From an uncultured Spirochaetia bacterium (GTDB taxonomy: Bacteria; Desulfobacterota_D; UBA1144; Nemesobacterales; Nemesobacteraceae), in the NCBI GenBank assembly GCA_964429945.1, contig CAYSDX010000114.1, positions 2,316 to 66,315 of the forward strand: a stretch of DNA of 64,000 bases, given 5' to 3'. Of this stretch, positions 49,744 to 62,570 are shown piece after piece (positions within the stretch are counted from its first letter, which is position 1; each line of letters begins with the position of its first letter). The position numbers and the translations under genes are program-made. The notes below the pieces were generated by a model, which had not been told where the DNA came from, searched no databases, and saw only the letters and a program-made list of their open reading frames with translations.

Positions 49744-50649
49744 ATGAAGATAAGAAACAGAATAAAAGTACCGGAAAAAATATCTGTCCCCGCATACGTC
49801 GGGATATTCCTCGCGTCTCTTCTGATTTTTTTCCTCCTTGGATTTCCCTGGGACTCGGTTGAAAGAAGAGTCGCCTTCGAGATACAGAGCAACTCCCCGG
49901 TTCCGGTTCTCATAGGCGGCACGGACCTCAAGGGTCTTTCCTCGGTCGAGCTTAATGATGTCCGGGTTCTGCTTGGGGACAGGGGGACGCTTGTGATTGA
50001 CAGGGCAAGGGTGAGCGCCGGTCTTTTCTCCGTCATTTTTTCAGACGATACGCGGGTTTCCTTTTCGGTTGACGCCTACGGTGGGAAGATAGACGGCAAG
50101 GTTTCGCAGAACAAGAAGAAAAACAAGGTCACAAGCGCCGAGGTGGACGTGAATTCCGTTGAGTCCTCGACCGTTTCCCGCCTTTTTCTCGAGGGCGAGG
50201 GGTTTTCGTTGAGCGGCAAGGTTGACGGAAGCGTGAAGTTCCTCGGAGAAGGGGAAAGCGGGGGGATTTCCAAGATGGAGTATCTCGTATCCTCGCCCTC
50301 TCTTTCGGTCGGGGTTGGGGATGTGGGGGGTTTTAAGGTGAAGGAGGAGTACAAAAACTTAAGCATGGTGCTCCGCGGCACCGCTAACCGCTTCGAGTCG
50401 AGAGTCGAGAGGTTTTCCCTAACTAACCCCAGGCTGTCACTTGAGGCGGAGGGCAAGGCTCCGTCTCCGCTCAGGTTCAGAAAGGGAGCCGCTCTCGATC
50501 TCTCCGTTACATTCAGGCCTTCTCCGGATGATGCGAAGCTTGCCCTTGTCGGCGCCTTTCTAAGCCCCCGCGGGGACGGCAGCTTCTCCGGGAGGATTCA
50601 GGGCACGCTCTCAAAACCCAAGATCGTGAACCCCGACGGGGACGGTTGA
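49744..50649 (+). CDS. GspN-like bitopic membrane protein
   Basis: 301 aa with an N-terminal TM helix (YVGIFLASLLIFFLLGF) and a beta-rich periplasmic part, positioned after L/M-like genes. Confidence 0.4.
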   Translation: MKIRNRIKVPEKISVPAYVGIFLASLLIFFLLGFPWDSVERRVAFEIQSNSPVPVLIGGTDLKGLSSVELNDVRVLLGDRGTLVIDRARVSAGLFSVIFSDDTRVSFSVDAYGGKIDGKVSQNKKKNKVTSAEVDVNSVESSTVSRLFLEGEGFSLSGKVDGSVKFLGEGESGGISKMEYLVSSPSLSVGVGDVGGFKVKEEYKNLSMVLRGTANRFESRVERFSLTNPRLSLEAEGKAPSPLRFRKGAALDLSVTFRPSPDDAKLALVGAFLSPRGDGSFSGRIQGTLSKPKIVNPDGDG

Positions 50650-50735
50650 TAGGCCCGTTTTTGGCGGCTCGGACTATTTGACTTTGACCTACCCCCTCGC
50701 TATTCTTCTCGCAATATTCCCCTTAAGACTGGATA

Positions 50736-51821
50736 ATGGCTCCCAACAAAGAACTCTCCGCTGTAAGAAAGGAAATAGACACGCTTGACTCCAAGCTGCT
50801 TGAACTTATAAACAAGCGAGCGGAACTTGCGACAGAGGTAAGCAGGTTCAAGAAAAAAGCTTCCTTGGGAGTCTACGACCTGGGCAGGGAGAGGGAGGTT
50901 GAAGCCAAGATAACAGGGAACAACCCCGGCCCCCTCTCAGACGAGGACATCCTTTTAGTTTTCAGGGATATAATATCGCGCTGCAGGTCTCTTCAGCACG
51001 ATGAGAAAGTCGCCTACCTGGGACCCGAAGGCAGTTTTTCAAACCAGGCCGCGTTTCGAAGATTCGGCGCCTCCTCCGAGCTTTTGCCCGTGTCGAGCGT
51101 CGTGGATGTGTTCGAGGAGGTGCACGGAAAAAGGGCCGATTTCGGCATAGTGCCCGTCGAGAACTCAGTGGAAGGCTCGGTGGGAGACGTGCTGGACATG
51201 TTCCTTGAGTGGGACCTCAGCATTTCCGCAGAGTGTTTCGAGCGCGTCGAGCACTTCCTGCTTTCCGCAAGCGGCGATATGAAGGACGTGAAGACCGTCG
51301 CCTCGCATCCCCAGGCGCTGGGGCAGTGCAAGAGATGGATCGCCGCGAACCTCTACGGAGTCAAGCTTCTTGAGACCTCAAGCACCGCAGCGGCGGCGAA
51401 GCTTGCCGCGAGGGACAATGAGGTGGCTGCGGTCGCAAGCGAGTTCTCGGGGACGATATATAACCTGAAGACGATCCAGAGCTACATAGAGGACAGCCCG
51501 CGCAACATGACCCGGTTCGTGATCGTGGGCAGGGAGAAGCCTCCCCCGTGCGGAGAAGACAAGACTTCGATTGCCTTTTCCGTCAAGGATGAGCCGGGAG
51601 TGCTTTACAGGGCGTTTTTTCTTCCTTTTTCAGAATCCAACATAAACCTCACCAAGATCGAGTCGAGGCCCCTGCGGGACGGGCAGTGGGAGTACGTGTT
51701 CTTCGTCGATTTCTCGGGACATCGCGAGGAAGATGCCGTAAGGAACGCCCTCGAGAAAGTGGAAGCCAACTGCGTTTTTCTAAAGGTGCTCGGATCCTAC
51801 CCGGCCGGACCGCTGGGCTGA
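50736..51821 (+). CDS. pheA: Bifunctional chorismate mutase / prephenate dehydratase
   Basis: CM_2 helix (VRKEIDTLDSKLLELINKRAELA), PDT domain (VAYLGPEGSFS) and C-terminal ACT (TSIAFSVKDEPGVL). Confidence 0.92.
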   Translation: MAPNKELSAVRKEIDTLDSKLLELINKRAELATEVSRFKKKASLGVYDLGREREVEAKITGNNPGPLSDEDILLVFRDIISRCRSLQHDEKVAYLGPEGSFSNQAAFRRFGASSELLPVSSVVDVFEEVHGKRADFGIVPVENSVEGSVGDVLDMFLEWDLSISAECFERVEHFLLSASGDMKDVKTVASHPQALGQCKRWIAANLYGVKLLETSSTAAAAKLAARDNEVAAVASEFSGTIYNLKTIQSYIEDSPRNMTRFVIVGREKPPPCGEDKTSIAFSVKDEPGVLYRAFFLPFSESNINLTKIESRPLRDGQWEYVFFVDFSGHREEDAVRNALEKVEANCVFLKVLGSYPAGPLG

Positions 51822-51845
51822 CACCGCCTGCCGGGCAGAACCCCG

Positions 51846-52931
51846 ATGGAACCAAGAGCAAGCGTAAAAAACCTTATCCCCTACATTCCGGGAAAACCTA
51901 TCGAGGAGCTTGAGCGGGAACTCGGGATCCAAGGCGCGGCAAAGATGGCTTCGAACGAAAACCCCCTTGGTCCCTCCCCGCTCGCGCAAAAGGCGCTTGC
52001 AGAACATATCTCCAAGGTGAACCTCTACCCGGACGGGGGCTGTTTCGAGCTCAGGCGGAAACTTTCCGAGAAGCTCGGGGTGGCGGAGGACACTATAGTA
52101 ATCGGCAACGGTTCAAACGAGGTGATAGAAATAGTTGCCAGGACGTTTCTCGAGCCGGGGGATGAGGCCATATACGGCCGTCACGCGTTTATCGTCTACC
52201 CGATCGTTACCCAGTCCCTCGGATGCTCTCACGTCATCTCCAAAATGCCGGATCTTGCGCATGATCTCGAGGACATGCTCTCTCTGGTGACTCCGAAAAC
52301 GAAAATAATCTATATCGCGAACCCAAACAACCCCACGGGGACGATAGTGAGGAGGGACGAGTTCGAGTGGTTCCTCGAGCGGGTGCCTGAGGACGTGATG
52401 GTGCTTGTGGACGAAGCCTATTTCGAGTACGTCGACGACCCCGAGTATCCGGACACGCTGCGCTACCACTCCGCTCGCGAGTCGCTCGTGACGGTGAGAA
52501 CCTTCTCCAAGATTTACGGGCTCGCGGGTCTTCGGGTCGGCTACGGGGTGGCGTCCGCCGAGGCGGTTTCCTACATGGACAGGGTGCGGGAGCCGTTTAA
52601 CGTGAACTCGGCCGCTCAGGCGGCGGCCTGCGCCGCGCTTGACGACGAAGGCCACGTCGCGCGCTCAAGGGAGCTTAACCGCGAGGGAAAGGAGTTTTTC
52701 CGCGAGAAGCTCGGCGAGCTCGGGGTCGGGTACACCGAGTCTCACACGAATTTTTTTCTGGTGGACCTTGAGAGGGGACCGATGCCGGTTTACGAGGCGC
52801 TTCTTCGCGACGGGGTTATAACGAGGCCCGTGGGCGGCTACGGACTTAAAACTCATCTCAGGGTAAGCTTCGGTCTCGCGCAGGAAAACGAAAGATTCAT
52901 CGAATCGCTAAGGAGAATTCTCGGAAGATGA
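51846..52931 (+). CDS. hisC: Histidinol-phosphate/aromatic aminotransferase
   Basis: ASNENPLGPSP, NPNNPTG, and FSKIYGLAGLRVGY (PLP lysine). Confidence 0.9.
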   Translation: MEPRASVKNLIPYIPGKPIEELERELGIQGAAKMASNENPLGPSPLAQKALAEHISKVNLYPDGGCFELRRKLSEKLGVAEDTIVIGNGSNEVIEIVARTFLEPGDEAIYGRHAFIVYPIVTQSLGCSHVISKMPDLAHDLEDMLSLVTPKTKIIYIANPNNPTGTIVRRDEFEWFLERVPEDVMVLVDEAYFEYVDDPEYPDTLRYHSARESLVTVRTFSKIYGLAGLRVGYGVASAEAVSYMDRVREPFNVNSAAQAAACAALDDEGHVARSRELNREGKEFFREKLGELGVGYTESHTNFFLVDLERGPMPVYEALLRDGVITRPVGGYGLKTHLRVSFGLAQENERFIESLRRILGR

Positions 52932-53782
52932 CTTTTAAAAAGGTGGCGGTGGTAGGTTTGGGGCTCATAGGAGGCTCCCTCGCGGCGGCTCTCCGCAACT
53001 CAGGAGAGGTGGGGGAGGTCTTCGGGATCGAAAGGGACGCGGAGTCACTCCGCTTCGCCCTTGAGGGCGGAATCGCGGACGCGGGCTCTTCCGAGGTGGG
53101 CCCCGGGATATCCGGATCCGAAATCGTCGTCGTCGCAACCTATGTGGACAGCATAGCCGGGGTCGCAAAGGAGGTCTCCGGGTTCATTTCCCCGGACACG
53201 GTCGTCTGCGACACTGGAAGCGTTAAGACTCCGATAGTGAGGGAGATGGAAAAGGGTCCCCGGAACATCCGCTTCGTGGGAGCCCATCCCATCGCGGGAA
53301 GGGAAACGTCCGGGGTAAGCGAGTCTGATCCCGCTCTTTTCTCCGGGAAAAGATGCGTGGTCACGCCCGTGGAGAGCACGTGCCCCGAGGCTCTCTCCAT
53401 GGTCAAGACGCTTTTTTCGCTCGTTGGAAGCGAGGTGGTGGAGATGGATCCCGCCTCCCACGACGAGGTCTTCTCGCTGGTAAGCCACCTCCCCCATGCG
53501 GTCGCCTATTCGCTTGTAAGCGCCGTGGCTTCTTCGGGAGGTGGGAGAAACCTCTTTGATTTTTCGGGAGGGGGCCTTGCCGACTTCACCAGGGTCGCGG
53601 GAAGTTCCCCCGAGATGTGGGCCGGGATTTTCATCGAGAACCGCGACGCGCTGCTCCGCGCCATCCGCGGTTTCTCGGGGAAGCTAGGGGAGATTGAAAA
53701 AGCCCTGGTCTCCGGTAATGTAGAAGAACTGATGACCCTTTTGAGGGAAGCCCGGGATTCCAAAAGGGATCTCGGGAAGTGA
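52928..53782 (+). CDS. tyrA: Prephenate (arogenate) dehydrogenase
   Basis: Rossmann [12 protein letters not shown] and GAHPIAG motifs. The start overlaps the hisC stop (ATGA). Confidence 0.88.
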
Positions 53783-53789
53783 GCGGAGA

Positions 53790-54194
53790 ATGTCCGATAA
53801 GGTAAAGAAAACGGACGAGCAGTGGCAGGAGCAGCTCTCCAGCGAGCAGTTTCTGGTAACGAGAAAAGCGGGCACCGAGAGGGCCTTTACCGGAAAGTAC
53901 CACGACCATCACGAAAAAGGCATGTACAGATGCGTGTGCTGCGGGCAGGAACTTTTCCGTTTCTCAGAGAAGTTCGATTCCGGCACGGGATGGCCCAGCT
54001 TCTGGGAACCCGCCTCGCAGGAGAACGTGACGGAGAAGGCCGACCGTTCCCACGGGATGACGAGAACCGAGGTTCTCTGCTCAAAGTGCGACGCCCACCT
54101 GGGCCACGTTTTTCCCGACGGTCCCCAGCCCACCGGGATGAGGTACTGCATAAATTCCGCCTCTTTGGATTTTGAGGAAGAAAAAGAGGAGTAG
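53790..54194 (+). CDS. msrB: Peptide-methionine (R)-S-oxide reductase
   Basis: CVCCGQELF...GWPSF...[12 protein letters not shown]...RYCINS. Confidence 0.95.
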
Positions 54195-54199
54195 GAAAA

Positions 54200-54271
54200 G
54201 TGGCGACGGGTGGGTTCGAACCACCGACACAGGCCTTATGAGAGCCCCGCTCTACCCCTGAGCTACGCCGC
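54200..54271 (-). tRNA. tRNA with CAT anticodon (elongator Met, or Ile2 if lysidine-modified)
   Basis: Minus strand GGCGGCG-UA-GCUC-AGGGGUA-GAGC-G-GGGCU-CUCAUAA-GGCCU-GUGUC-GGUGG-UUCGAAC-CCACC-CGUCGCC-A. The G1-C72 pair argues against an initiator. Confidence 0.85.
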
Positions 54272-54365
54272 CTCAGGAAAAAACAAGGTAAACCGAAAGG
54301 CAGCAAATTATACCGGAACTCCGTCAGGATTCAACGCACAGACCCGCTATCCGGGCTTTTCGTAA

Positions 54366-55040
54366 TCAGCCGGCGGCCGCGCCGTTTTTCTTGGTTTCTT
54401 CCCTGATGAGTCCGAGTTCCAGGAGTTTTCTGTAGGTTCTGGTGTGGGAACCGTAGTGGGAGAAAATCTCTATGTCCCCGGGTTCGTCGATATCGATGCT
54501 GATGTTCAGGTTCTTGTAGATGTCGCAGGGCACGTATCTGCGCTCGGCTTCCTCCCTGTGTTTTCTGAAGCTGTCGTTGCCGAACATGGAGGGGATGGTG
54601 TCGGGGGGCTTTCTCAGTATGGCGTTTGTGCCGAGCTCGTCATCCGAGGGCACCAGGATAACGGACTTTCCCTTTTTTTCCTTCTCAAGGATGAAATCAA
54701 GGTCCTCGCCGGTTACAAGCGGGGTGTCGCCTGGAATCACGAGCACCGACTTGGCGCCCATTTTCCTGCAGACCTGAAGCGCCAGGTCAACCGACCCGCT
54801 TTCCCCAAGCGGCGTTTCCTCCCTTATGACGTCGAATCCCTCCTCAAGCGCCATTTTCTCCGCCCTCCTGTCAACCGTCACAATGACCTTGTTGTCGGCA
54901 AGCTTGGAGCTTCCGACCGCGGAGAACACGTCCTCAAGCATCACGTAGGCAAGCTCGGTCCTCTGCTTTTTGCTGAGCACAGATGCGAGCCTCTCGTTTG
55001 CCTTGGAAAGGTCCTTTACTGGAATCAGTATGAATTTCAA
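54366..55040 (-). CDS. cofC: CofC/FbiD-like 2-phospho-L-lactate guanylyltransferase (MobA-like NTP transferase fold)
   Basis: MKFILIPVKDLSKANERL...VLVIPGDTPLV pattern of the DUF121/CofC family. Confidence 0.55.
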   Translation of the reverse strand: MKFILIPVKDLSKANERLASVLSKKQRTELAYVMLEDVFSAVGSSKLADNKVIVTVDRRAEKMALEEGFDVIREETPLGESGSVDLALQVCRKMGAKSVLVIPGDTPLVTGEDLDFILEKEKKGKSVILVPSDDELGTNAILRKPPDTIPSMFGNDSFRKHREEAERRYVPCDIYKNLNISIDIDEPGDIEIFSHYGSHTRTYRKLLELGLIREETKKNGAAAG

Positions 55041-55319
55041 AACAGTTACCTCACGACGAGAACCCCAACCCGGACACTATTTTATCACAAGTTAGTTTTG
55101 GTTCCCATATCTCTACAAATAAACCATTTATAGGGTTGTGCGCTTTGGCCGCTTTTGCAAGAAGGAATCGGTCGAAGGGCTGAATGACCTCTGAATTTCA
55201 AAGTTGAATCCCCTAATGATATGTAGGAAACTTAGATTGCGTAAGGTTTCGCAGCAGAGTTACACTACTGTGACATGTTGCAGCCTTTGGGAAACAAGTA
55301 GTAGCAACTAGGTGTGGAT

Positions 55320-56441
55320 ATGACGGAAGAGTCAAAAAATCTTAAGCGCATTCGGATTGAAGGGTTCAAGTCTATAAAACAACTCGATTTGATCATGAAA
55401 GACATCAACGTATTGATTGGTGCAAATGGAGCTGGAAAAACCAATCTGATTTCGCTGTTCACTTTTCTAGGTTGTTTATCCCAAGGTAAGTTGCAACAAT
55501 ATATTAAAACAGAAGGGGGAGCGGAAGCCTTTTTCCATTTTGGCACTAAAAACACAAAAAGGATAAAGTTAGGTCTGGAAATTGGAAACAACGAATACAA
55601 TGTGGAATTTTTGCCCGACTTGGATAATGATTCCTTGTTTTTTGACATTGAGAGTTGTCGCAGGGTTTATCCACCAGGTGGAACGAATTGGTACCTTCGC
55701 TCAAGAAAGGGTGAAAGCGGTTTTGTAACAGAAGATCTCATGGGTCAAGCGGTAAAATACTATACGAAAAAATATCTTGACCAATGCAGAGTTTACCATT
55801 TTCATGACACAAGCAGCCAAGCCGCATTCAAGAAAAGATCTAGTCTGTACGATGACTATTACCTTGAAGAGGATGCGGCTAATATCGCTCCTTTTCTTTA
55901 CGACCTGAAAACTGATCAGGATGAAGATAGCCAGCAATCATATAATCAAATTGTTTGTGCAATTCAGAGTGTGGCCCCGTTTTTTCACGGTTTCTACTTG
56001 GAACCGACGGGAAAGCGGGGAGATGAAAATATTTTATTGCGCTGGATGCACAAGAATCGCCGGTCACCATTTAGCGCTAATGCTCTATCGGACGGAACGG
56101 CTAGGTTTGTCTGTCTCGCAACTCTTTTACTGCAGCCTGAGTCGAGAAGACCCGACACAATAATACTAGATGAACCGGAACTCGGATTACACCCCGCGGC
56201 ACTTTGCGTTCTCGCCGATATTATCCGCTCAATATCTGTGGAAACGCAGGTCATTTGTTCTACGCAATCCGTAGTTTTTGCGAACTTTTTCAGTCCCGAG
56301 GATTTTATCGTAACGGAGTTAAAAGATGGAGTTTCGGTGTTTAAGCGGCTTGAGAGAGAGCAGGTTGAGCAGTGGCTGGATGAGTATGGGATGGGCGAAA
56401 TCTGGTCCAAGAATCTTATTGGCGGTCGCCCGGAATGGTAA
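55320..56441 (+). CDS. ABC-type (AAA_21/AAA_15-like) ATPase, partner of a DUF4276-like protein
   Basis: ATG 55320 preceded by AGGTG. Walker A GANGAGKTN, signature-like LSDGTARF, Walker B TIILDEPELGLHP, C-terminal NLIGGRPEW. Confidence 0.78.
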   Translation: MTEESKNLKRIRIEGFKSIKQLDLIMKDINVLIGANGAGKTNLISLFTFLGCLSQGKLQQYIKTEGGAEAFFHFGTKNTKRIKLGLEIGNNEYNVEFLPDLDNDSLFFDIESCRRVYPPGGTNWYLRSRKGESGFVTEDLMGQAVKYYTKKYLDQCRVYHFHDTSSQAAFKKRSSLYDDYYLEEDAANIAPFLYDLKTDQDEDSQQSYNQIVCAIQSVAPFFHGFYLEPTGKRGDENILLRWMHKNRRSPFSANALSDGTARFVCLATLLLQPESRRPDTIILDEPELGLHPAALCVLADIIRSISVETQVICSTQSVVFANFFSPEDFIVTELKDGVSVFKRLEREQVEQWLDEYGMGEIWSKNLIGGRPEW

Positions 56442-57046
56442 GACTTGCCGTATCCGTGGAGGGCCAGACGGAGGAGCGTTTTATAAAAGAAGTAATTGCT
56501 CCCCACTTAGAAAGTCGGGAGATTTATGCCCAACCGATTCCGCTCGGAAGCGGAGGGGGCGATGTTTCGATGCCGCGCGTCAGAAAAGACTTGATAAACT
56601 TGCTGGGAAGTTTTGATAAAGTAACGACGTTCTATGATTTTTACGGGTTTCGGGGGAAGGATGAGGCGGAGAGCAAGGAGTCGTTAGAAGCGAAAATCCT
56701 TGATTGCGTTAAATCCCAGTCTCGCGTCCGGCTCATTCCATATATCCAGATGTACGAATTTGAAGGGTTGCTGTTTTCATCTCCGCAGGCTATAGAAAAC
56801 AATATTCCTCCCTATAGCGGGTTGTCGGATTGGGCACAGCGAGTGGTTAGTAAATTTGGCGGAGACCCCGAAGCGATAAATGACTCAACGCATTCTGCTC
56901 CTTCAAAAAGACTGAGCGGTAAAACAAAATACATAAAAACTATTCATGGGCCCGACATAGCGGGTGAAATTGGCCTTGAAGTATTAAGAGAGAAATGCAA
57001 GGATTTTGGAAAGTGGCTTTCTAAATTGGAAAAATTGAGGGCATAG
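56435..57046 (+). CDS. DUF4276-like (TOPRIM-like) small protein
   Basis: 203 aa with N-terminal LAVSVEGQTEERFIKEVIAPHL and later YEFEGLLFSSP. The ATG overlaps the ATPase stop (ATGGTAA). Confidence 0.6.
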   Translation: MVRLAVSVEGQTEERFIKEVIAPHLESREIYAQPIPLGSGGGDVSMPRVRKDLINLLGSFDKVTTFYDFYGFRGKDEAESKESLEAKILDCVKSQSRVRLIPYIQMYEFEGLLFSSPQAIENNIPPYSGLSDWAQRVVSKFGGDPEAINDSTHSAPSKRLSGKTKYIKTIHGPDIAGEIGLEVLREKCKDFGKWLSKLEKLRA

Positions 57047-57161
57047 TTCTATATTCAGATAGATTGTTCATATGATATGAATGACTCGCACTCCTTTAAG
57101 GCATTTGCACTGTTGAATGTCATGTTTTCAAGTTTGACTTGACTGCAGTAAACTAGAACAA

Positions 57162-59930
57162 ATGAAAGAATGGAAATGGGAAGGCTCACGTTGGTGGAAA
57201 TTTGATTTCCATACCCATACTCCAGCCTCTGATGATTACGGCAAGGGACAGAACCAAACAGCCTTGAAAGAACACAAACCTAGGGACTGGCTGCTTGACT
57301 ACATGCGCGCCGGTATCGATTGCGTTGCAATAACTGATCACAATAGTGGTCAGTGGATTGACCTTGTCAAGGAGGAACTTGCCCGATTGGAAAGTGATCC
57401 TCCTGAAGGATTCAGGCCTATTCACGTATTTCCGGGCGTGGAAATCTCGATTAACGGTGGCATACATCTTCTGGCGATTTTCGGACCTGATAAAAAGACA
57501 TCGGATGTAGACTCTCTTCTAACAAGGGTCGAATTTGACGGCGAAAAAGGTTCAGGCGATGGAGTTACATGCCTTTCGCTCATCAAGGTTGTTGAAGAAG
57601 TTGTTTCAGCAGGAGCAATAGCAATTCCCGCCCATGCGGACAAGACGAAAGGGCTTTTCAATGTTTTTAAAAAAGGAAAAACGCTAGAGCAGGTACTGGA
57701 CTGCAAAAGTGTTTTTGCGATAGAGTTGGTTGATCCAGATTGCGAGAAGCCGGGAACCTATGCCGACAAAAATCCTCGGTGGACCGAGGTGCTCGGGTCT
57801 GACAGTCATTATCCTCCCGGCAGTTTGGAAGAAAAATACCCCGGCAGCCACTTCACTTGGGTCAAAATGGGAACGCCGGGAATAGAGGGACTACGGTTAG
57901 CTCTGCTTGATGGTCCACTGTCCGTGATTCGGTCCGACAGGCAGGAAGGCAACCCTAACGAGCGTGCGAAAATGGTGCTGGAATCCATAGAAGTTTCGCA
58001 AGCGCGTTATCTAGGCCGTTTCAACCCCTTCACAATAGAGTTTAACCCTTGGCTTAACTCTATCATCGGTGGCAGGGGGACCGGCAAATCGACCATCATT
58101 GAATTTCTGCGTATTGCCCTGCGAAGAGAGGATGAATTGCCGGAAGACTTGCAAAACGACTTTGAAAAATACAGGAAAGTTTACCCCGACAGAAAAGAAG
58201 GCGGTCTTCTCACGGATGAAGTTACTATCAAGACAGTTTATCGCAAGGACGATTCACGGTTTTGCGTACAGTGGGACAATGCTGGGAATCTTGAACCCAT
58301 TGAAGAGGAAATTGAAGGAGAATGGAAGCGTGCCGAAGGTGATATTCGACAACGATTTCCGGTGAGAATTTACAGCCAGAAACAGATATTTCATCTTGCG
58401 AAAAGACCACTTGCCTTACTCAGCGTGGTTGACGAAGCTCTGGAAGTGGATCGTCACTCTTGGGATGAGAAGTGGAGACAGGCGGAAAGCAGATTCCTTT
58501 TTCTGCGTGCAAAAGTCAGAGAGACAGAAGCCGGATTGTTTGAAAAAACGCGTCTTCAGGGCGAGCTTGAAGACATAAAAAGAAAGCAGGATATCTTCGA
58601 ACAGGCTGGATACGCGGATGTATTACGGAATTTTCAGAAATTGAGCCGCCAGAAACGTAGCATGGGAGATTGGGAGGAAACTTGGATTGAAGTTGGAGAA
58701 AGGTTGCGGCGTGTAGCGCGTGAACTTGTTCCCGAACCTCTTGAAGATAAAACCTTTGATACGGATATTGAGGCAGATGTCGAATTGCAAGGACATGCAG
58801 CCGCGGCACGCGAAAGCTTGGGTGAATTACGTAAAGAAGTTGAATCTCTTGCATCTCGAGCAGATAAAATTCTCGCCGAGTGGCAGAAGAACAAGGATGA
58901 ATCATTTTGGAAGAGGGGTGTTACCGTTGCTGAACAGGCCTATCAGAAATTGAAGGAAGACTTGGCAAAAGAGGGAGAAGACGACCCAGCGGGTTACGGT
59001 GAGTTGGTACAGCGCCGCCAATTCATCGAGAAGAAACTTGAGCGGCTTGAGGAATCCAAAAAGCATGTAGGGGAACTTGAAAAACAGTCAGAGCTGCAGT
59101 TAGAAGAAATGCTGGAAATCCGCCGGGAACTGACCAAATTCCGAGAGAATTTTTTGAACGGGGTACTAGGTGAAAATCAATATGTCCGCATAAAGGTTGT
59201 TCCTTATAGAGCAACTGATACTGTTGAAGCAGAATTCCGCCAGTTGCTTCAAAGGGAAGGCTCGAGCTTCGAGAAGGACATAGGTTCGCCAAACGGCGGA
59301 GGATTGCTCGGGAACCTTTATAAGGGTAATAAGTGCAGTGAGAATATCGAAAAGAATCTTGCGGAAATCAAAAACAACGTTAGGGATATTGCCTCTGGCA
59401 AGGATGATCCACAGGTTGTGGATCAACGATTCTCTAAGCATGTCTCTAATCTCAACCCTGAAGCTATTGATCGTATAGACATGTGGTTTCCAGAGGATTC
59501 ACTTGATGTCCAATACAATGCAACGGGCGAAGGTGAGAATTTTCTCTCGATAGAGGAAGGCTCGCCTGGACAGAGGACAGCTGCGCTTCTGGCCTTCCTT
59601 CTTTCTTATGGGGATGAACCCTTGATTCTGGACCAACCCGAAGATGATCTGGACAACCTGTTGATCTATGATTTGATTGTGACCCAGTTACGGAACATGA
59701 AGCGCAATCGACAGATCATTGTAGTGACGCATAATGCCAATATAGTTGTCAACGGCGATTCGGAACTAATTGTGGCTCTTGCCCCGCATTACGGTGAAAC
59801 GAAAAAAGACTGCAACGGAAGTCTTCAGGAGAAAGAAGTCAGGGAAACTATTTGCGCAATTATGGAGGGAGGAAGTAAGGCATTCGAAGATCGCTATCGT
59901 CGTATCGCGCCTGGAAAAGACCATGTTTAA
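57162..59930 (+). CDS. PHP-family phosphoesterase fused to an SMC/RecN-like ABC ATPase with central coiled coil
   Basis: PHP motifs FDFHTHTPASDDYG, AITDHNS, GVEIS..GIHLL and IPAHAD. Walker A GGRGTGKST, about 250 aa of charged heptad-like sequence, signature-like SPGQRTAALLAF, Walker B LILDQPEDDLD, then VVTHNANIVVNGDSE. Confidence 0.8.
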   Translation: MKEWKWEGSRWWKFDFHTHTPASDDYGKGQNQTALKEHKPRDWLLDYMRAGIDCVAITDHNSGQWIDLVKEELARLESDPPEGFRPIHVFPGVEISINGGIHLLAIFGPDKKTSDVDSLLTRVEFDGEKGSGDGVTCLSLIKVVEEVVSAGAIAIPAHADKTKGLFNVFKKGKTLEQVLDCKSVFAIELVDPDCEKPGTYADKNPRWTEVLGSDSHYPPGSLEEKYPGSHFTWVKMGTPGIEGLRLALLDGPLSVIRSDRQEGNPNERAKMVLESIEVSQARYLGRFNPFTIEFNPWLNSIIGGRGTGKSTIIEFLRIALRREDELPEDLQNDFEKYRKVYPDRKEGGLLTDEVTIKTVYRKDDSRFCVQWDNAGNLEPIEEEIEGEWKRAEGDIRQRFPVRIYSQKQIFHLAKRPLALLSVVDEALEVDRHSWDEKWRQAESRFLFLRAKVRETEAGLFEKTRLQGELEDIKRKQDIFEQAGYADVLRNFQKLSRQKRSMGDWEETWIEVGERLRRVARELVPEPLEDKTFDTDIEADVELQGHAAAARESLGELRKEVESLASRADKILAEWQKNKDESFWKRGVTVAEQAYQKLKEDLAKEGEDDPAGYGELVQRRQFIEKKLERLEESKKHVGELEKQSELQLEEMLEIRRELTKFRENFLNGVLGENQYVRIKVVPYRATDTVEAEFRQLLQREGSSFEKDIGSPNGGGLLGNLYKGNKCSENIEKNLAEIKNNVRDIASGKDDPQVVDQRFSKHVSNLNPEAIDRIDMWFPEDSLDVQYNATGEGENFLSIEEGSPGQRTAALLAFLLSYGDEPLILDQPEDDLDNLLIYDLIVTQLRNMKRNRQIIVVTHNANIVVNGDSELIVALAPHYGETKKDCNGSLQEKEVRETICAIMEGGSKAFEDRYRRIAPGKDHV

Positions 59931-61164
59931 CAGCCCGGAAGAACTGCTGCGCAAAATACATCTTGGAGAAGACAACTCGCTTGAGCTTAAAGCTATTGTG
60001 TTCAGAGGGGAACGGATTATCGGGCCATCGCGCGACGAACTGGCCGACGAATTTTCCTCTATAGCCAATACTAACGACTGCGTAGTTGTTCTGGGCGTGG
60101 ACGATAAGACTCACGAGATAATTGGTATCCCGGCAGAACGCATAGAAACCGTTGAGCGTTACTTATACGAAATTTGCAATGACAGCATCACACCGCCTGT
60201 TTTTTTTCGATCATTCCGCATGGAACTTCCCGACAGCACAGGTGCTTTGCAGATCGTCCTCAAGGTGGAAGTTCCGCGCAGTCTCTTTGTCCACGAAAGC
60301 CCGGGCGGCTACTTCCATCGCCAAGGGAGTTCAACACGGAAAATGTCGCCGGAATATCTCGCCCGCATGTTTCAGCAACGCAGTCAGGCCCGATTGATCA
60401 GATTTGAAGAACAGCCTGTCCCCCAGTCAAGCATAAATGATTTATGTAAGGAACTGTGGGAAAAATACACCACGCGTTCCAATGAACCCGTAGAAGTCAT
60501 TTTGCTGAAGCGTTCTTTATTGTCCAAAGAGGAAAGTGGGACTGTGGTTGCTTCGGTGGCAGGCATATTGTTTTGTAGCGAATATCCAGAGCACTTTTTA
60601 CCCAACGCATTTATTGAGGCCGTGCGCTACAGGGGAACAAGGCAGGATTCCAATTATCAGATTGATGCTCAGAGAATCCGCGGACCACTTGACCAGCAGA
60701 TAAAAGAATCCATGGCTTTTCTAAGAAGGAATCAGGTTGTCGGAGCTGTCAAGAAACCTCATCGCGTCGAAAAGCCGCAGTTCAGCGAGCAGGCCGTATT
60801 TGAAGCTGTGGTAAATGCCGTGGCTCATCGGGACTATTCGATCTCCGGATCAAAGATCCGGCTCTTCATGTTTGATGACCGGCTGGAAATTTACTCGCCA
60901 GGCGCTCTTCCCAATACCGTAACCATTGACAGCATGCACCTTCGCCAAGCGACCCGGAATGAACTGATTACAAGTCTGCTTGCGGAAACACCGGTGGCAA
61001 CGGCGATTGGAGATGTGGGACGTGGTTTCTACATGGAAAAACGAGGTGATGGAGTTCCAATTATTTTGGATGAAAGCGAAAGACTTTCCGGAAAAAAGCC
61101 GGTTTATAAACTCATCGATGATTCCGAACTTTTGCTAACCATTTATTCTGCGAAAACGCGATAA
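59923..61164 (+). CDS. AlbA_2 (Schlafen-like) domain protein with HATPase_c_4-like C-terminal domain (COG2865-like)
   Basis: 413 aa from ATG 59923, overlapping the upstream stop (ATGTTTAA). N-terminal GEDNSLELKA...VVVLGVDD and C-terminal FEAVVNAVAHRDYS...LEIYSPGALPN. No C-terminal HTH seen. Confidence 0.7.
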   Translation: MFNSPEELLRKIHLGEDNSLELKAIVFRGERIIGPSRDELADEFSSIANTNDCVVVLGVDDKTHEIIGIPAERIETVERYLYEICNDSITPPVFFRSFRMELPDSTGALQIVLKVEVPRSLFVHESPGGYFHRQGSSTRKMSPEYLARMFQQRSQARLIRFEEQPVPQSSINDLCKELWEKYTTRSNEPVEVILLKRSLLSKEESGTVVASVAGILFCSEYPEHFLPNAFIEAVRYRGTRQDSNYQIDAQRIRGPLDQQIKESMAFLRRNQVVGAVKKPHRVEKPQFSEQAVFEAVVNAVAHRDYSISGSKIRLFMFDDRLEIYSPGALPNTVTIDSMHLRQATRNELITSLLAETPVATAIGDVGRGFYMEKRGDGVPIILDESERLSGKKPVYKLIDDSELLLTIYSAKTR

Positions 61165-61286
61165 ACTCATCAATGATTCCGAACTTGGATCATGCGGGAA
61201 TATAATCGGGTAAATTCCAGAGAGTATCCGCGCAAGAATATAGCTTGGAAAAACAAGAACCGCTGCTCCCCGCCGTATTCATTTTA

Positions 61287-61316
61287 TTGACAATAAAAGA
61301 TGCCTGTATATAGAAT
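61287..61316 (+). promoter_or_regulatory. Candidate sigma70 promoter of hisBH
   Basis: TTGACA (61287-61292), 18-nt spacer, TAGAAT (61311-61316), 47 nt upstream of the hisB ATG. Confidence 0.4.
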
Positions 61317-61362
61317 GATTAGCGGAAACTAGCCGCCACGCCGCGAAGAAAGGAGCCCGACA

Positions 61363-61950
61363 ATGACCCGCAAAGCCGTTTTAAAAAGAGAAACATCCGA
61401 AGTCAGTGTCAGCGTCGAGCTTGATCTTGACGGAACCGGGAAATTCGATATCTCGACGGGGGTGCCGTTTTTCGACCACATGCTGAGCCAGTTCGCAAAG
61501 CACGGCTACTTCGACCTCACGGTCAAGGCCGAAGGAGACATCGACGTTGATTTCCACCACACCGTTGAGGACGTGGGGATAGTGCTCGGTGAAGCCTTCT
61601 CGGAAGCCCTGGGAGACAAGAGGGGAATCACTAGGTACGGGCACGCCGTAATTCCCTTTGACGACGTGCTTGTCGTGGTGGCGGTTGATCTAAGCGACAG
61701 GCCCTGCTTCGTTTTCAAGGGTGATATCCCGGGGGGCAAGGTCGGGGACTTTGACGCGGAGCTCGCCGAGGAGTTTTTCAAGTCTCTTACGAACTCGCTT
61801 CGCTGCAACCTGCACATCGAGTTTCGCCACGGAACGAATCTGCACCACATAATAGAGGCCATGTTCAAGGCCTTGGGAAGATCCATGGATTCTGCCTCGG
61901 CGCTTGACGGGCGCCGCGACGATATTCCCTCGACCAAGGGGACTCTCTAG
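61363..61950 (+). CDS. hisB: Imidazoleglycerol-phosphate dehydratase
   Basis: RETSEVSVSVELDLDGTG...PFFDHML...HHTVEDVGI...HHIIEAMFKA. Confidence 0.95.
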   Translation: MTRKAVLKRETSEVSVSVELDLDGTGKFDISTGVPFFDHMLSQFAKHGYFDLTVKAEGDIDVDFHHTVEDVGIVLGEAFSEALGDKRGITRYGHAVIPFDDVLVVVAVDLSDRPCFVFKGDIPGGKVGDFDAELAEEFFKSLTNSLRCNLHIEFRHGTNLHHIIEAMFKALGRSMDSASALDGRRDDIPSTKGTL

Positions 61951-62570
61951 TGATTTCCATAGTGGATTACGGAATGGGGAACCTGAGAAGCGTCGAGAAG
62001 GGCTTTACCTCCCAGGGCATTAGTGTGCGCGTGACCTCGGATCCGGGCTACATAGAGAGCTCGAGCGGCATCGTGCTTCCCGGAGTCGGGGCTTTCGGCG
62101 ACTGCGTGAGGAACCTTCGGGACCGCTTCATGATCGGACCCATAAAGGATTTTGTCGGGAGCGGGCGGCCTTTTTTGGGAATATGCCTCGGTTTTCAGGT
62201 GCTGTTTGAGTCAAGCGAGGAGGCGCCGGGGGAACAGGGGCTCGGGGTCTTCAGGGGAAAGGTCGTTCGGTTCCGCCCCGAGAATAAGAGCATGAAGGTG
62301 CCCCACATGGGCTGGAACAGGGTGAGTGTCCCCGAGCGGAGTTCCATACTCGAGGGGATACCGCAGCGAAGCTGGTTTTATTTCGTCCACTCCTACCACG
62401 TGGTATCGGAGCAGCCCGGGGTCGAGGTTCTTCACTCCGATTACGGGGGCTCCTTCGAGGCGGGGGTCATATCGGGCAACCTCTCGGCTTTTCAGTTCCA
62501 CCCTGAAAAAAGCTCCGACTACGGGCTCATGATCTTGAGGAACTTCTCGAAGCTCTGTCTTGAGAACTGA
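61950..62570 (+). CDS. hisH: Imidazole glycerol phosphate synthase, glutaminase subunit
   Basis: GTG start overlapping the hisB TAG. IVDYGMGNLRSV, catalytic GICLG, and FQFHPEKS. Confidence 0.93.
   Translation: MISIVDYGMGNLRSVEKGFTSQGISVRVTSDPGYIESSSGIVLPGVGAFGDCVRNLRDRFMIGPIKDFVGSGRPFLGICLGFQVLFESSEEAPGEQGLGVFRGKVVRFRPENKSMKVPHMGWNRVSVPERSSILEGIPQRSWFYFVHSYHVVSEQPGVEVLHSDYGGSFEAGVISGNLSAFQFHPEKSSDYGLMILRNFSKLCLEN

Follow-up and report, generated by a model that had tools for sequence, protein, structure and literature searches.

A Ppl-like gene overlapping a stand-alone Schlatpase gene: a candidate two-gene anti-phage operon

Overview of the locus

We describe a pair of overlapping genes found in a 64,000-nucleotide stretch of contig CAYSDX010000114.1 (positions 2,316 to 66,315, forward strand) from an uncultured Spirochaetia bacterium; this whole stretch is called the window below, and positions on it are counted from its first letter. 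Gene 1 encodes a 922-amino-acid (aa) protein of the Ppl-like/TrlF family, in which a putative PHP phosphoesterase domain is joined to an SMC-like ATPase, and gene 2 encodes a 413-aa protein that is predicted to be a stand-alone Schlatpase, that is, a Schlafen/AlbA_2 nuclease lobe followed by a GHKL-type ATPase. Although Ppl is catalogued as a one-gene system, the branch of Ppl-like genes to which this locus belongs usually forms a two-gene unit, as seen in about four-fifths of the sampled loci. In the following sections, we describe the two proteins and the conservation of the pair, then the genes that occur without their partner and the surrounding island, and finally weigh the possible explanations.

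The features of the locus are collected in Table 1. Both open reading frames and their overlap agree in coordinates and sequence with the initial annotation, which had been made by a model from the letters and a mechanical list of open reading frames. The junction reads ...gaccATGTTTAAcagc..., so that 8 nt are common to genes 1 and 2. The mechanical list would start gene 2 at a TTG codon at 59770 (464 aa). This start was rejected because every orthologue begins at the methionine of an MF(N/D)S motif, M1 being invariant in the gene 2 alignment, and the ATG codon given in the table was adopted instead.

Table 1. Coordinates of the features at and around the two-gene locus
Feature	Positions	Strand	Motifs and basis
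Gene 1, Ppl-like/TrlF family, 922 aa, ATG start	57162..59930	+	Open reading frame; family hidden Markov models (HMMs)
Putative PHP phosphoesterase domain of gene 1, ~residues 8-250	57183..57911	+	Motifs; family HMMs
ATPase head of gene 1, N-terminal half	57969..58451	+	Walker A GGRGTGKST (303-311), Q-loop Q406; AAA_23, AAA_15
Coiled-coil insertion of gene 1, ~residues 431-669	58452..59168	+	Helices of the AlphaFold2 (AF2) model
ATPase head of gene 1, C-terminal half	59169..59906	+	SPGQ 801-804, Walker B DQPEDD 824-829, H-loop H857; AAA_21 742-862, SMC_N 799-868
Overlap of gene 1 stop and gene 2 start, 8 nt ATGTTTAA	59923..59930	+	Read from the sequence
Gene 2, predicted stand-alone Schlatpase, 413 aa, ATG start	59923..61164	+	Open reading frame; Pfam; PADLOC
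Predicted Schlafen nuclease lobe of gene 2, residues 1-142	59923..60348	+	E16-x4-E21-x-K23, SAFAN-like box SSIAN (A48 N49), D61
Predicted GHKL-type ATPase core of gene 2, ~residues 285-401	60775..61125	+	N-box E294...N298, HRDY 302-305, SPG 325-327, RN 345-346, RGxG 374-377
Candidate defence pair HEC-01: AAA_21 ATPase 55314-56441, DUF4276 56435-57046	55314..57046	+	PADLOC; Pfam
Two 26-nt direct repeats	61106-61131 (inside gene 2 3' end); 61161-61186 (across and after the stop)	+	Repeat search, 25/26 identical

Gene 1: a distant relative of Ppl

The protein of gene 1 matches four Pfam families (AAA_21, AAA_23, SMC_N and AAA_15) and, from residue 8 to residue 915, two full-length models: the PADLOC model of Ppl (PDLC02208, E = 4.7e-148, model positions 4-892 of 894) and the NCBIfam model NF045780, "TrlF family AAA-like ATPase" (622.7 bits for an equivalog cut-off of 350, model positions 2-943 of 944). 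Against the Ppl equivalog model NF042955 (Ppl_antiphage), it scores 595.8 bits, which is under the cut-off of 1000 because the genes annotated as ppl are only 29-35% identical to it. The latter range comes from a tblastn search of plasmids, in which the TrlF-annotated set (Enterobacterales, Pseudomonas) reaches 39-50%; identity to the canonical E. coli Ppl is 29%. RefSeq uses the TrlF name for proteins of E. coli and Klebsiella that are 50% identical to gene 1, and a literature search on "TrlF" found no paper explaining the name. In total, 5634 homologues were collected at E<=1e-10. The relationship to Ppl proposed in the initial annotation thus holds over the whole length of the protein, but the classification as Ppl proper does not: judged by these scores, gene 1 belongs to the wider Ppl superfamily as a distant relative.

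Ppl was reportedly described by Gao et al. in 2020 as a single-gene anti-phage system. A 917-aa protein of the E. coli chromosome (L081) was considered as the Ppl of that work and was rejected, as it too falls under the Ppl equivalog cut-off (630 bits); true ppl genes were found on plasmids.

The catalytic residues are well conserved in both parts of the protein. In an alignment of 19 homologues, H17, H19, D25, H60, E94, H102, H158, D214 and H216 are invariant; these nine residues are kept by every one of the 21 solo and 3 canonical Ppl sequences and by at least 62 of the 66 paired ones. We read them as a probable PHP-like metal-ligand set. The Pfam PHP model gave no match to gene 1 at E<=0.01; therefore, the assignment of this domain rests on the motifs, on the full-length Ppl and TrlF HMMs and on a match to the CehA/McbA metallohydrolase model that lies under the cut-off of that model (2.9e-7). 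Likewise invariant in the 19 homologues, and common to canonical Ppl, are Walker A (G303, K309 and S310 included), Q406, SPGQ, Walker B and H857 of the ATPase.

A sequence search of the PDB with phmmer returned weak matches to Rad50 only, including the Rad50 N-terminus 5dac, and no solved Ppl structure was found by this search. An AF2 model built from an alignment of the closest homologues has low confidence (predicted local distance difference test score, pLDDT, of 60 overall), and it was used only for the topology of the coiled coil and the ATPase. It places helices at 431-481, 484-522, 537-578, 582-603 and 610-669, between the two ATPase halves, with pLDDT 60-92 over most of the span. The top Foldseek matches of the model are LmuB (9uxh being the best), JetC, SMC heads and Rad50. 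Taken with the invariant motifs and the HMM matches, the helices at 431-669 bear out the architecture given in the initial annotation, a PHP domain joined to an SMC-like ATPase that is split by a coiled coil.

Gene 2: a predicted stand-alone Schlatpase

Two Pfam domains match the protein of gene 2, and both score above their gathering thresholds: SLFN_AlbA_2 (PF04326) at residues 16-142 (1.9e-12, 48.2 bits for a gathering score of 25.3) and HATPase_c_4 (PF13749) at residues 309-401 (1.1e-19, 70.7 bits for a gathering score of 26). This is the domain pair that the initial annotation had named. The PADLOC matches are to Argonaute-associated models only, the best being pAgo PDLC02394, which represents the N-terminus of SLFN-pAgo (7.7e-19, residues 38-408). 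The homologues number 7931.

The nuclease motif takes the form E16-DNSL-E21-L-K23, and the SAFAN-type box is SSIAN at residues 45-49. Among the 63 orthologues that are linked to a Ppl-like gene, E16, K23, N49 and D61 are identical in all and E21 in 62, while the N-box residues E294 and N298 and the HRDY motif (302-305) are kept in 62; overall, the residues of the GHKL core are kept in 60-63 of the 63. When 21 orthologues were combined into a profile, it matched the nuclease lobes of SLFN14 (1.4e-10, with the catalytic segment aligned), SLFN8, SLFN11, SLFN5 and SLFN12, and weakly that of CbCash (0.018). For the GHKL half, the profile matches 3lmm (1.2e-13), and RsbW, PhoQ and CpxA are matched only weakly. 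The AF2 model, again built from the closest homologues, has a pLDDT of 57 overall and 73-93 in the Schlafen lobe, and only that lobe was used; its top Foldseek matches are SLFN13, SLFN14, SLFN5 and the tRNase domain of SAMD9, and matches to Alba are also present. No helix-turn-helix (HTH) domain was detected in the protein, which ends 12 residues past HATPase_c_4. By these matches, the gene 2 product is a predicted Schlatpase.

Conservation of the gene pair

To find related loci, one genome per GTDB species was scanned with an alignment of Ppl-like proteins. The scan yielded at least 590 related loci, of which the best 80 (33-80% identity) were examined. An orthologue of gene 2 lies directly downstream of the Ppl-like gene, on the same strand, in 63 of the 80 (62 complete copies and one truncated where its contig stops). 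In all 63 loci, the partner starts between -17 and +7 nt relative to the stop of the Ppl-like gene, the commonest junction being an 8-nt overlap of the type ATGTTTGA or ATGTTTAA. Because order, strand and tight junction recur in so many independent loci, the arrangement is far beyond chance. Adjacency elsewhere is therefore the rule in this sample; the opposite outcome, that homologues are rarely adjacent, had been named in the initial annotation as one that would speak against a module.

The carriers are taxonomically diverse. They include Latescibacterota, sulfate-reducing Deltaproteobacteria, Planctomycetes, Acidobacteria, Myxococcales, Verrucomicrobia, Chloroflexi, Bacteroidota, Gemmatimonadetes, Poribacteria, Acidimicrobiia, alpha-, beta- and gamma-Proteobacteria, Chlorobi, Kiritimatiellia, Spirochaetia, a cyanobacterium and the archaeon Methanospirillum; the taxonomy was taken from the record titles and the phylum assignments are our own. 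Candidate cultured carriers of the pair are Halorhodospira abdelmalekii DSM 2110 (L023), Prosthecochloris vibrioformis DSM 260 (L053) and Acidithiobacillus sp. M4-SHS-6 (L070). Pairwise distances of the two proteins correlate across loci (Mantel r=0.77, reached by 0 of 2000 permutations). The mean distance is 0.48 for the partner versus 0.63 for the Ppl-like protein, so that the partner has diverged less. A comparison with the syntenic locus L168 shows purifying selection on both genes, with a ratio of nonsynonymous to synonymous substitution rates (dN/dS) of 0.16 in gene 1 and 0.10 in gene 2.

Some loci contain more than one pair or place the pair within a larger system. In L022 (786-5895) and L027 (1761-5742), and also in L020 (2-1586), there is a second TrlF-like PHP-ATPase (923-1287 aa), which is very divergent and is followed by a Schlatpase of its own. 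The second pairs of L022 and L027 stand just upstream of the main pair in the same gene order, as duplicated or stacked paralogous pairs. In L026 (2207-12825), a BREX-like locus encloses the whole pair, with a PglX-type methylase on one side of it and a PglZ-domain protein on the other. In L030 (2345-12414), a PglX-type methylase is found upstream of the pair and a protein without a Pfam match downstream.

Ppl-like genes without the partner

Next to the solo Ppl-like genes of the sample stand further defence genes, among them BrxL, AIPR and helicases, and one of the solo genes lies between a type III Mod and Res. In a neighbour-joining tree, solo members are dispersed among the paired clades, and at least 16 gain or loss events are needed when the tree is rooted with canonical Ppl. 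Also solo are the 50%-identical enterobacterial TrlF genes, which occur on a chromosome and on plasmids, and a 76%-identical copy from Dadabacteria. Viral contigs gave only four matches, all of them solo and about 46-50% identical.

Genes of the Ppl/TrlF family were found on 472 plasmid records, mostly from Escherichia and Klebsiella, of which 398 are conjugative, and all examined copies are solo. NDM-named plasmids are among the carriers, for example p_dm09_NDM5 and pNDM-TJ03. In Polaromonas sp. OV174 (L071, 2531-11549), a type III-like methylase gene and a Res helicase gene flank the solo Ppl-like gene, each overlapping it by 4 nt, and an AIPR gene stands upstream; the slot of this solo gene, Mod-X-Res, is the one that a Schlatpase takes in L126 and L132. 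Probably, the view of Ppl as a single-gene system is explained by the fact that the versions in model organisms are partnerless.

Partner genes in other contexts

A reverse scan of metagenome contigs with the alignment of the partner proteins gave 80 close relatives, 67 of which could be assessed. Upstream neighbours other than a Ppl-like gene, for partners of up to 75% identity, are type III methyltransferases (including the order Mod-Schlatpase-Res), DISARM DrmD-type SNF2 helicases, Druantia DruE, a GajB-like UvrD helicase, PDC-M68B and proteins without a family match. In the partner tree, the Ppl-linked members and those from other contexts are interspersed.

Two further loci are worth recording for gene 2. 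In L082 (3555-5239), the Schlatpase is 87% identical to the gene 2 protein and only C-terminal Ppl-like fragments (HMM positions 781-917) lie upstream, so that the Ppl-like gene appears to be decaying beside an intact partner. In L084 (1455-5706), a Schlatpase 75% identical to the gene 2 protein is coupled to two upstream proteins of 629 and 216 aa, which have no Pfam, NCBIfam or PADLOC match, and a small PDC-S05-like protein comes after it; the locus may represent a partner system that has not been described before.

A tight association of Schlafen-ATPase proteins with defence systems that are based on nucleases (BREX, restriction-modification (R-M) and type I CRISPR) is noted in PMC13462974. 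The contexts of the Schlatpase clade described here agree with that remark. Ppl is not among the associations described in PMC13462974, and our literature search found no paper combining Ppl, Schlafen and phage.

The surrounding island

The island that holds the pair spans about 6 kb and is low in GC (0.461 versus 0.546 and 0.566 in the flanks); it is placed between a cofC-like gene, close to a tRNA-Met gene (54200-54272), and hisB. The island breaks an otherwise ordinary run of amino-acid biosynthesis genes (49744-54306 and 61363-62570), with pheA-like, hisC, tyrA, msrB, tRNA-Met and the cofC-like gene on the left and hisB and hisH on the right. Directly upstream of the pair, in the common island, is the candidate defence pair HEC-01, which has a 7-nt gene overlap of its own; its genes match HEC-01A (1.8e-130) and HEC-01B (2.9e-57) of PADLOC and the Pfam families AAA_21/AAA_15 and DUF4276. 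All four genes of the island (the HEC-01 pair, the Ppl-like gene and the Schlatpase gene) are present at the equivalent site, between the cofC-like gene and hisB, in L168, where the order of the flanking biosynthesis genes is also kept.

The upstream copy of the 26-nt repeat codes for YKLIDDSEL in the Schlatpase, and the core of the downstream copy is also found after the orthologous gene in L168. The repeat may be what is left of the 3' end of another Schlatpase gene, or it may mark a past recombination. An Rfam scan of 54000-61500 had the tRNA-Met gene as its sole match. A scan for promoters and terminators gave no more sites than a shuffled sequence, and operon boundaries were not drawn from it.

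Comparison with known systems

PMC12904381 describes canonical Ppl as a single-gene system that acts autonomously. According to PMC12904381 and PMC13434339, both citing Xu et al., Mol Cell 2026, the E. coli enzyme is a single-stranded DNA (ssDNA) 3'-5' exonuclease that is inhibited by nucleoside triphosphates (NTPs) bound to its PHP and NTPase domains, and it is activated by nucleotide depletion together with the 3'-OH ends that phage homing endonucleases produce. Gene 1 resembles it in having an N-terminal PHP nuclease domain and an ABC/SMC-type NTPase, in its end-to-end PADLOC match and in its catalytic residues, and both occur in defence islands and on mobile elements. In contrast, gene 1 is assigned by score to the TrlF family, and the single-gene architecture is absent here: a coupled Schlatpase is present at this locus and in 79% of the sampled relatives, whereas the canonical ppl loci are solo.

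The "Schlatpase" supradomain was named in bioRxiv 10.64898/2026.05.29.728809, where it is characterised by the motif E(x)4(D/E)xK and the SAFAN box. In the SLFN-pAgo protein RzAgo, ATP-driven tetramerisation of the Schlatpase assembles the Schlafen nuclease, tRNA is cleaved and infection is aborted (bioRxiv 10.64898/2026.05.29.728809). The AlbA_2/HATPase family, which the initial annotation had taken to be without a defined role, therefore does have one, as these two domains together form the tRNase effector, driven by ATP, of SLFN-pAgo. The gene 2 protein has PF04326 followed by PF13749, as in RzAgo, with the same nuclease motif and SAFAN-type box, and is covered by the corresponding PADLOC model over 38-408. 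Unlike RzAgo, it lacks an Argonaute core and so cannot be silenced by a guide-RNA filament as RzAgo is, and it stands alone, coupled to a Ppl-like gene. Stand-alone and R-M-fused Schlatpases are reported in the same preprint with no link to Ppl. Another relative is Cash, whose Schlafen nuclease lobe has an E-D/E-K centre and cleaves tRNA when oligomerised (PMC13462974). Gene 2 shares this lobe and centre with Cash; however, Cash senses cyclic tetraadenylate (cA4) through Csx15, whereas a GHKL ATPase is predicted here, and the match to CbCash is weak, as noted above.

Lamassu offers a parallel for gene 1. The LmuB model of PADLOC matches residues 270-861 (8.4e-14), and in both systems an SMC-like DNA sensor is joined to a nuclease. 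In gene 1, however, the nuclease domain (PHP) is fused in cis and separate genes for LmuA or LmuC are absent, the neighbours being HEC-01 and the Schlatpase; note also that the LmuB match covers the ATPase only and that the structural model of gene 1 is of low confidence. A parallel in logic is given by PrrC-EcoprrI and RloC, anticodon nucleases with an NTPase module that are encoded inside R-M loci as a second line. As with these, gene 2 would place a latent tRNA nuclease inside the operon of a DNA-targeting defence, with a comparable guard mechanism as a hypothesis. The nuclease and NTPase folds differ from those of PrrC and RloC, a relationship in sequence was not detected, and no PrrC model is among the PADLOC matches of gene 2. 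SLFN11 is reported to cleave tRNA after DNA damage.

Interpretation

We consider it fairly probable that the two genes form an anti-phage operon, a variant of the Ppl system with a partner, in which a DNA-end exonuclease is accompanied by an accessory Schlafen RNase effector. This reading draws on the domain architectures, the catalytic motifs intact in both proteins, the conserved coupled operon, the co-divergence of the two proteins, purifying selection and the defence-island context. To these we add, by analogy, what we infer for the biochemical activities of both proteins and for the direction of signalling between them.

By homology to E. coli Ppl, the Ppl-like enzyme would recognise phage DNA ends with 3'-OH overhangs and degrade ssDNA in the 3'->5' direction, and bound NTPs would hold it off until their pool falls. 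Gene 2 would be translated from the common mRNA through the 8-nt overlap. Judged from its homologues, Cash and the Schlatpase of SLFN-pAgo, its product would oligomerise on ATP binding, cleave tRNAs and stop translation, resulting in abortive infection. The most likely logic would be a first-line attack on DNA by the Ppl-like enzyme combined with a second-line RNase, which may be licensed by DNA intermediates or by the state of the first enzyme (compare SLFN11), or alternatively by the inhibition of that enzyme, as in a PrrC-type guard. The stronger conservation of the partner, and the fact that its clade serves many DNA-targeting systems, fit a sensor or first-line enzyme that is combined with an effector acting on an invariant host target.

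Several observations weigh against this reading. A Ppl-like gene stands alone in 17 of the 80 loci (~21%), and all canonical ppl loci inspected (plasmids of E. coli, Klebsiella and Vibrio) are solo, as is every enterobacterial, plasmid and prophage copy examined. Thus, of the two-gene module put forward in the initial annotation, the conserved coupled unit stands and its obligate character does not. Exclusiveness fails from the partner side as well, since a Ppl-like gene is upstream of only 20 of the 67 close Schlatpase relatives and another neighbour is found in 47. We found no column of Ppl that is conserved in paired and relaxed in solo proteins (0, with a random control mean of 0.13); therefore, a physical complex is not supported by the sequences, which carry no visible interface signature. 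In addition, the Ppl mechanism would have to be transferred at 29% identity, the GHKL half of the gene 2 model has a pLDDT of <50, and the pair, like any stand-alone Schlatpase, is known from its genes alone. Finally, Ppl is reported to be activated by NTP depletion (PMC12904381), whereas Schlatpase activation needs ATP (bioRxiv 10.64898/2026.05.29.728809).

Part of this evidence would be expected if two independent single-gene defence systems, a Ppl-like one and a Schlatpase, merely stood side by side in islands, each being self-sufficient. Each gene does occur without the other, canonical Ppl is described as a single-gene system (PMC12904381), no Ppl column tracks the presence of the partner, and the Schlatpase clade is found beside many unrelated systems. 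Random neighbours, however, do not keep order, strand and a junction of -17 to +7 nt invariant in 63 loci across many phyla, nor do they account for co-divergence at r=0.77 or for a divergent paralogous pair that keeps the same arrangement; moreover, elsewhere the Schlatpase is embedded in other operons (for example, Mod-X-Res) rather than free-standing. For these reasons, we regard independence of the two genes as unlikely. Another possibility is that the Schlatpase is a regulator or immunity factor, a nucleic-acid-binding ATP sensor that restrains the Ppl-like nuclease in the manner of an antitoxin or a transcription factor. Homologues are named "predicted HTH transcriptional regulator" or "putative DNA binding domain-containing protein", nucleic-acid binding is a property of AlbA-type folds (as reflected in the Alba matches of Foldseek), and the partner is the more conserved protein. 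Against such a role, E16, K23 and D61 are identical in 63/63 orthologues and E21 in 62, and mere binding would not require catalytic residues; no HTH domain was detected in a protein that ends so soon after HATPase_c_4; solo Ppl-like genes are common without a visible compensating change, which indicates that the nuclease needs no antidote; and the gene follows its supposed target instead of preceding it. A regulatory role thus seems quite improbable to us.

A further explanation, that the pair is a housekeeping DNA-repair module in which SbcCD/Mre11-Rad50-like end processing is assisted by an accessory protein and which has no conflict role, takes account of the Rad50/SMC-like ATPase with its attached nuclease and of the position of the pair among amino-acid biosynthesis genes in the window. 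It is hard to reconcile with the low GC of the island, with a patchy and horizontally transferred distribution (80% identity between distant lineages, with phyla interspersed), with positions next to or inside HEC-01, BREX, R-M, Druantia and DISARM loci, with the strong matches to Ppl defence models and with frequent occurrence on conjugative plasmids, and we give it hardly any credence. We therefore retain the two-gene anti-phage operon as our reading. A wider version of it, which we put forward only tentatively, is that the stand-alone Schlatpase is a general plug-in second-line effector, a tRNase licensed by a DNA signal that turns DNA-targeting defences into abortive infection, the partnered form being usual in the TrlF branch. 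Such an effector would be a prokaryotic counterpart of the tRNA cleavage by SLFN11 after DNA damage.

Significance

Both kinds of component were already known, as was the habit of Schlafen-ATPases to ride with nuclease systems. What is new here is the link to the TrlF branch of Ppl, which is specific, tightly coupled and dominant; the solo form, the one that has been studied, is the exception in our sample. The PADLOC and NCBI models would label such a locus Ppl or TrlF and ignore gene 2.

The role of prokaryotic Schlafen nucleases has so far been shown only for Argonaute-fused (bioRxiv 10.64898/2026.05.29.728809) and CRISPR-associated forms (PMC13462974). If the partner is a tRNase effector, the pair would link the sensing of DNA ends to the shutdown of translation, and it would offer a compact two-gene system for studying how stand-alone prokaryotic Schlafen nucleases are activated. 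It would then also bear on a wider pattern, because the Schlatpase clade is also found in type III R-M, DISARM, Druantia, GajB-like helicase and BREX loci. If, in addition, the plug-in reading is true, the Ppl-like/Schlatpase pair would be the simplest two-gene model of a Schlafen RNase that is switched by a DNA nuclease.

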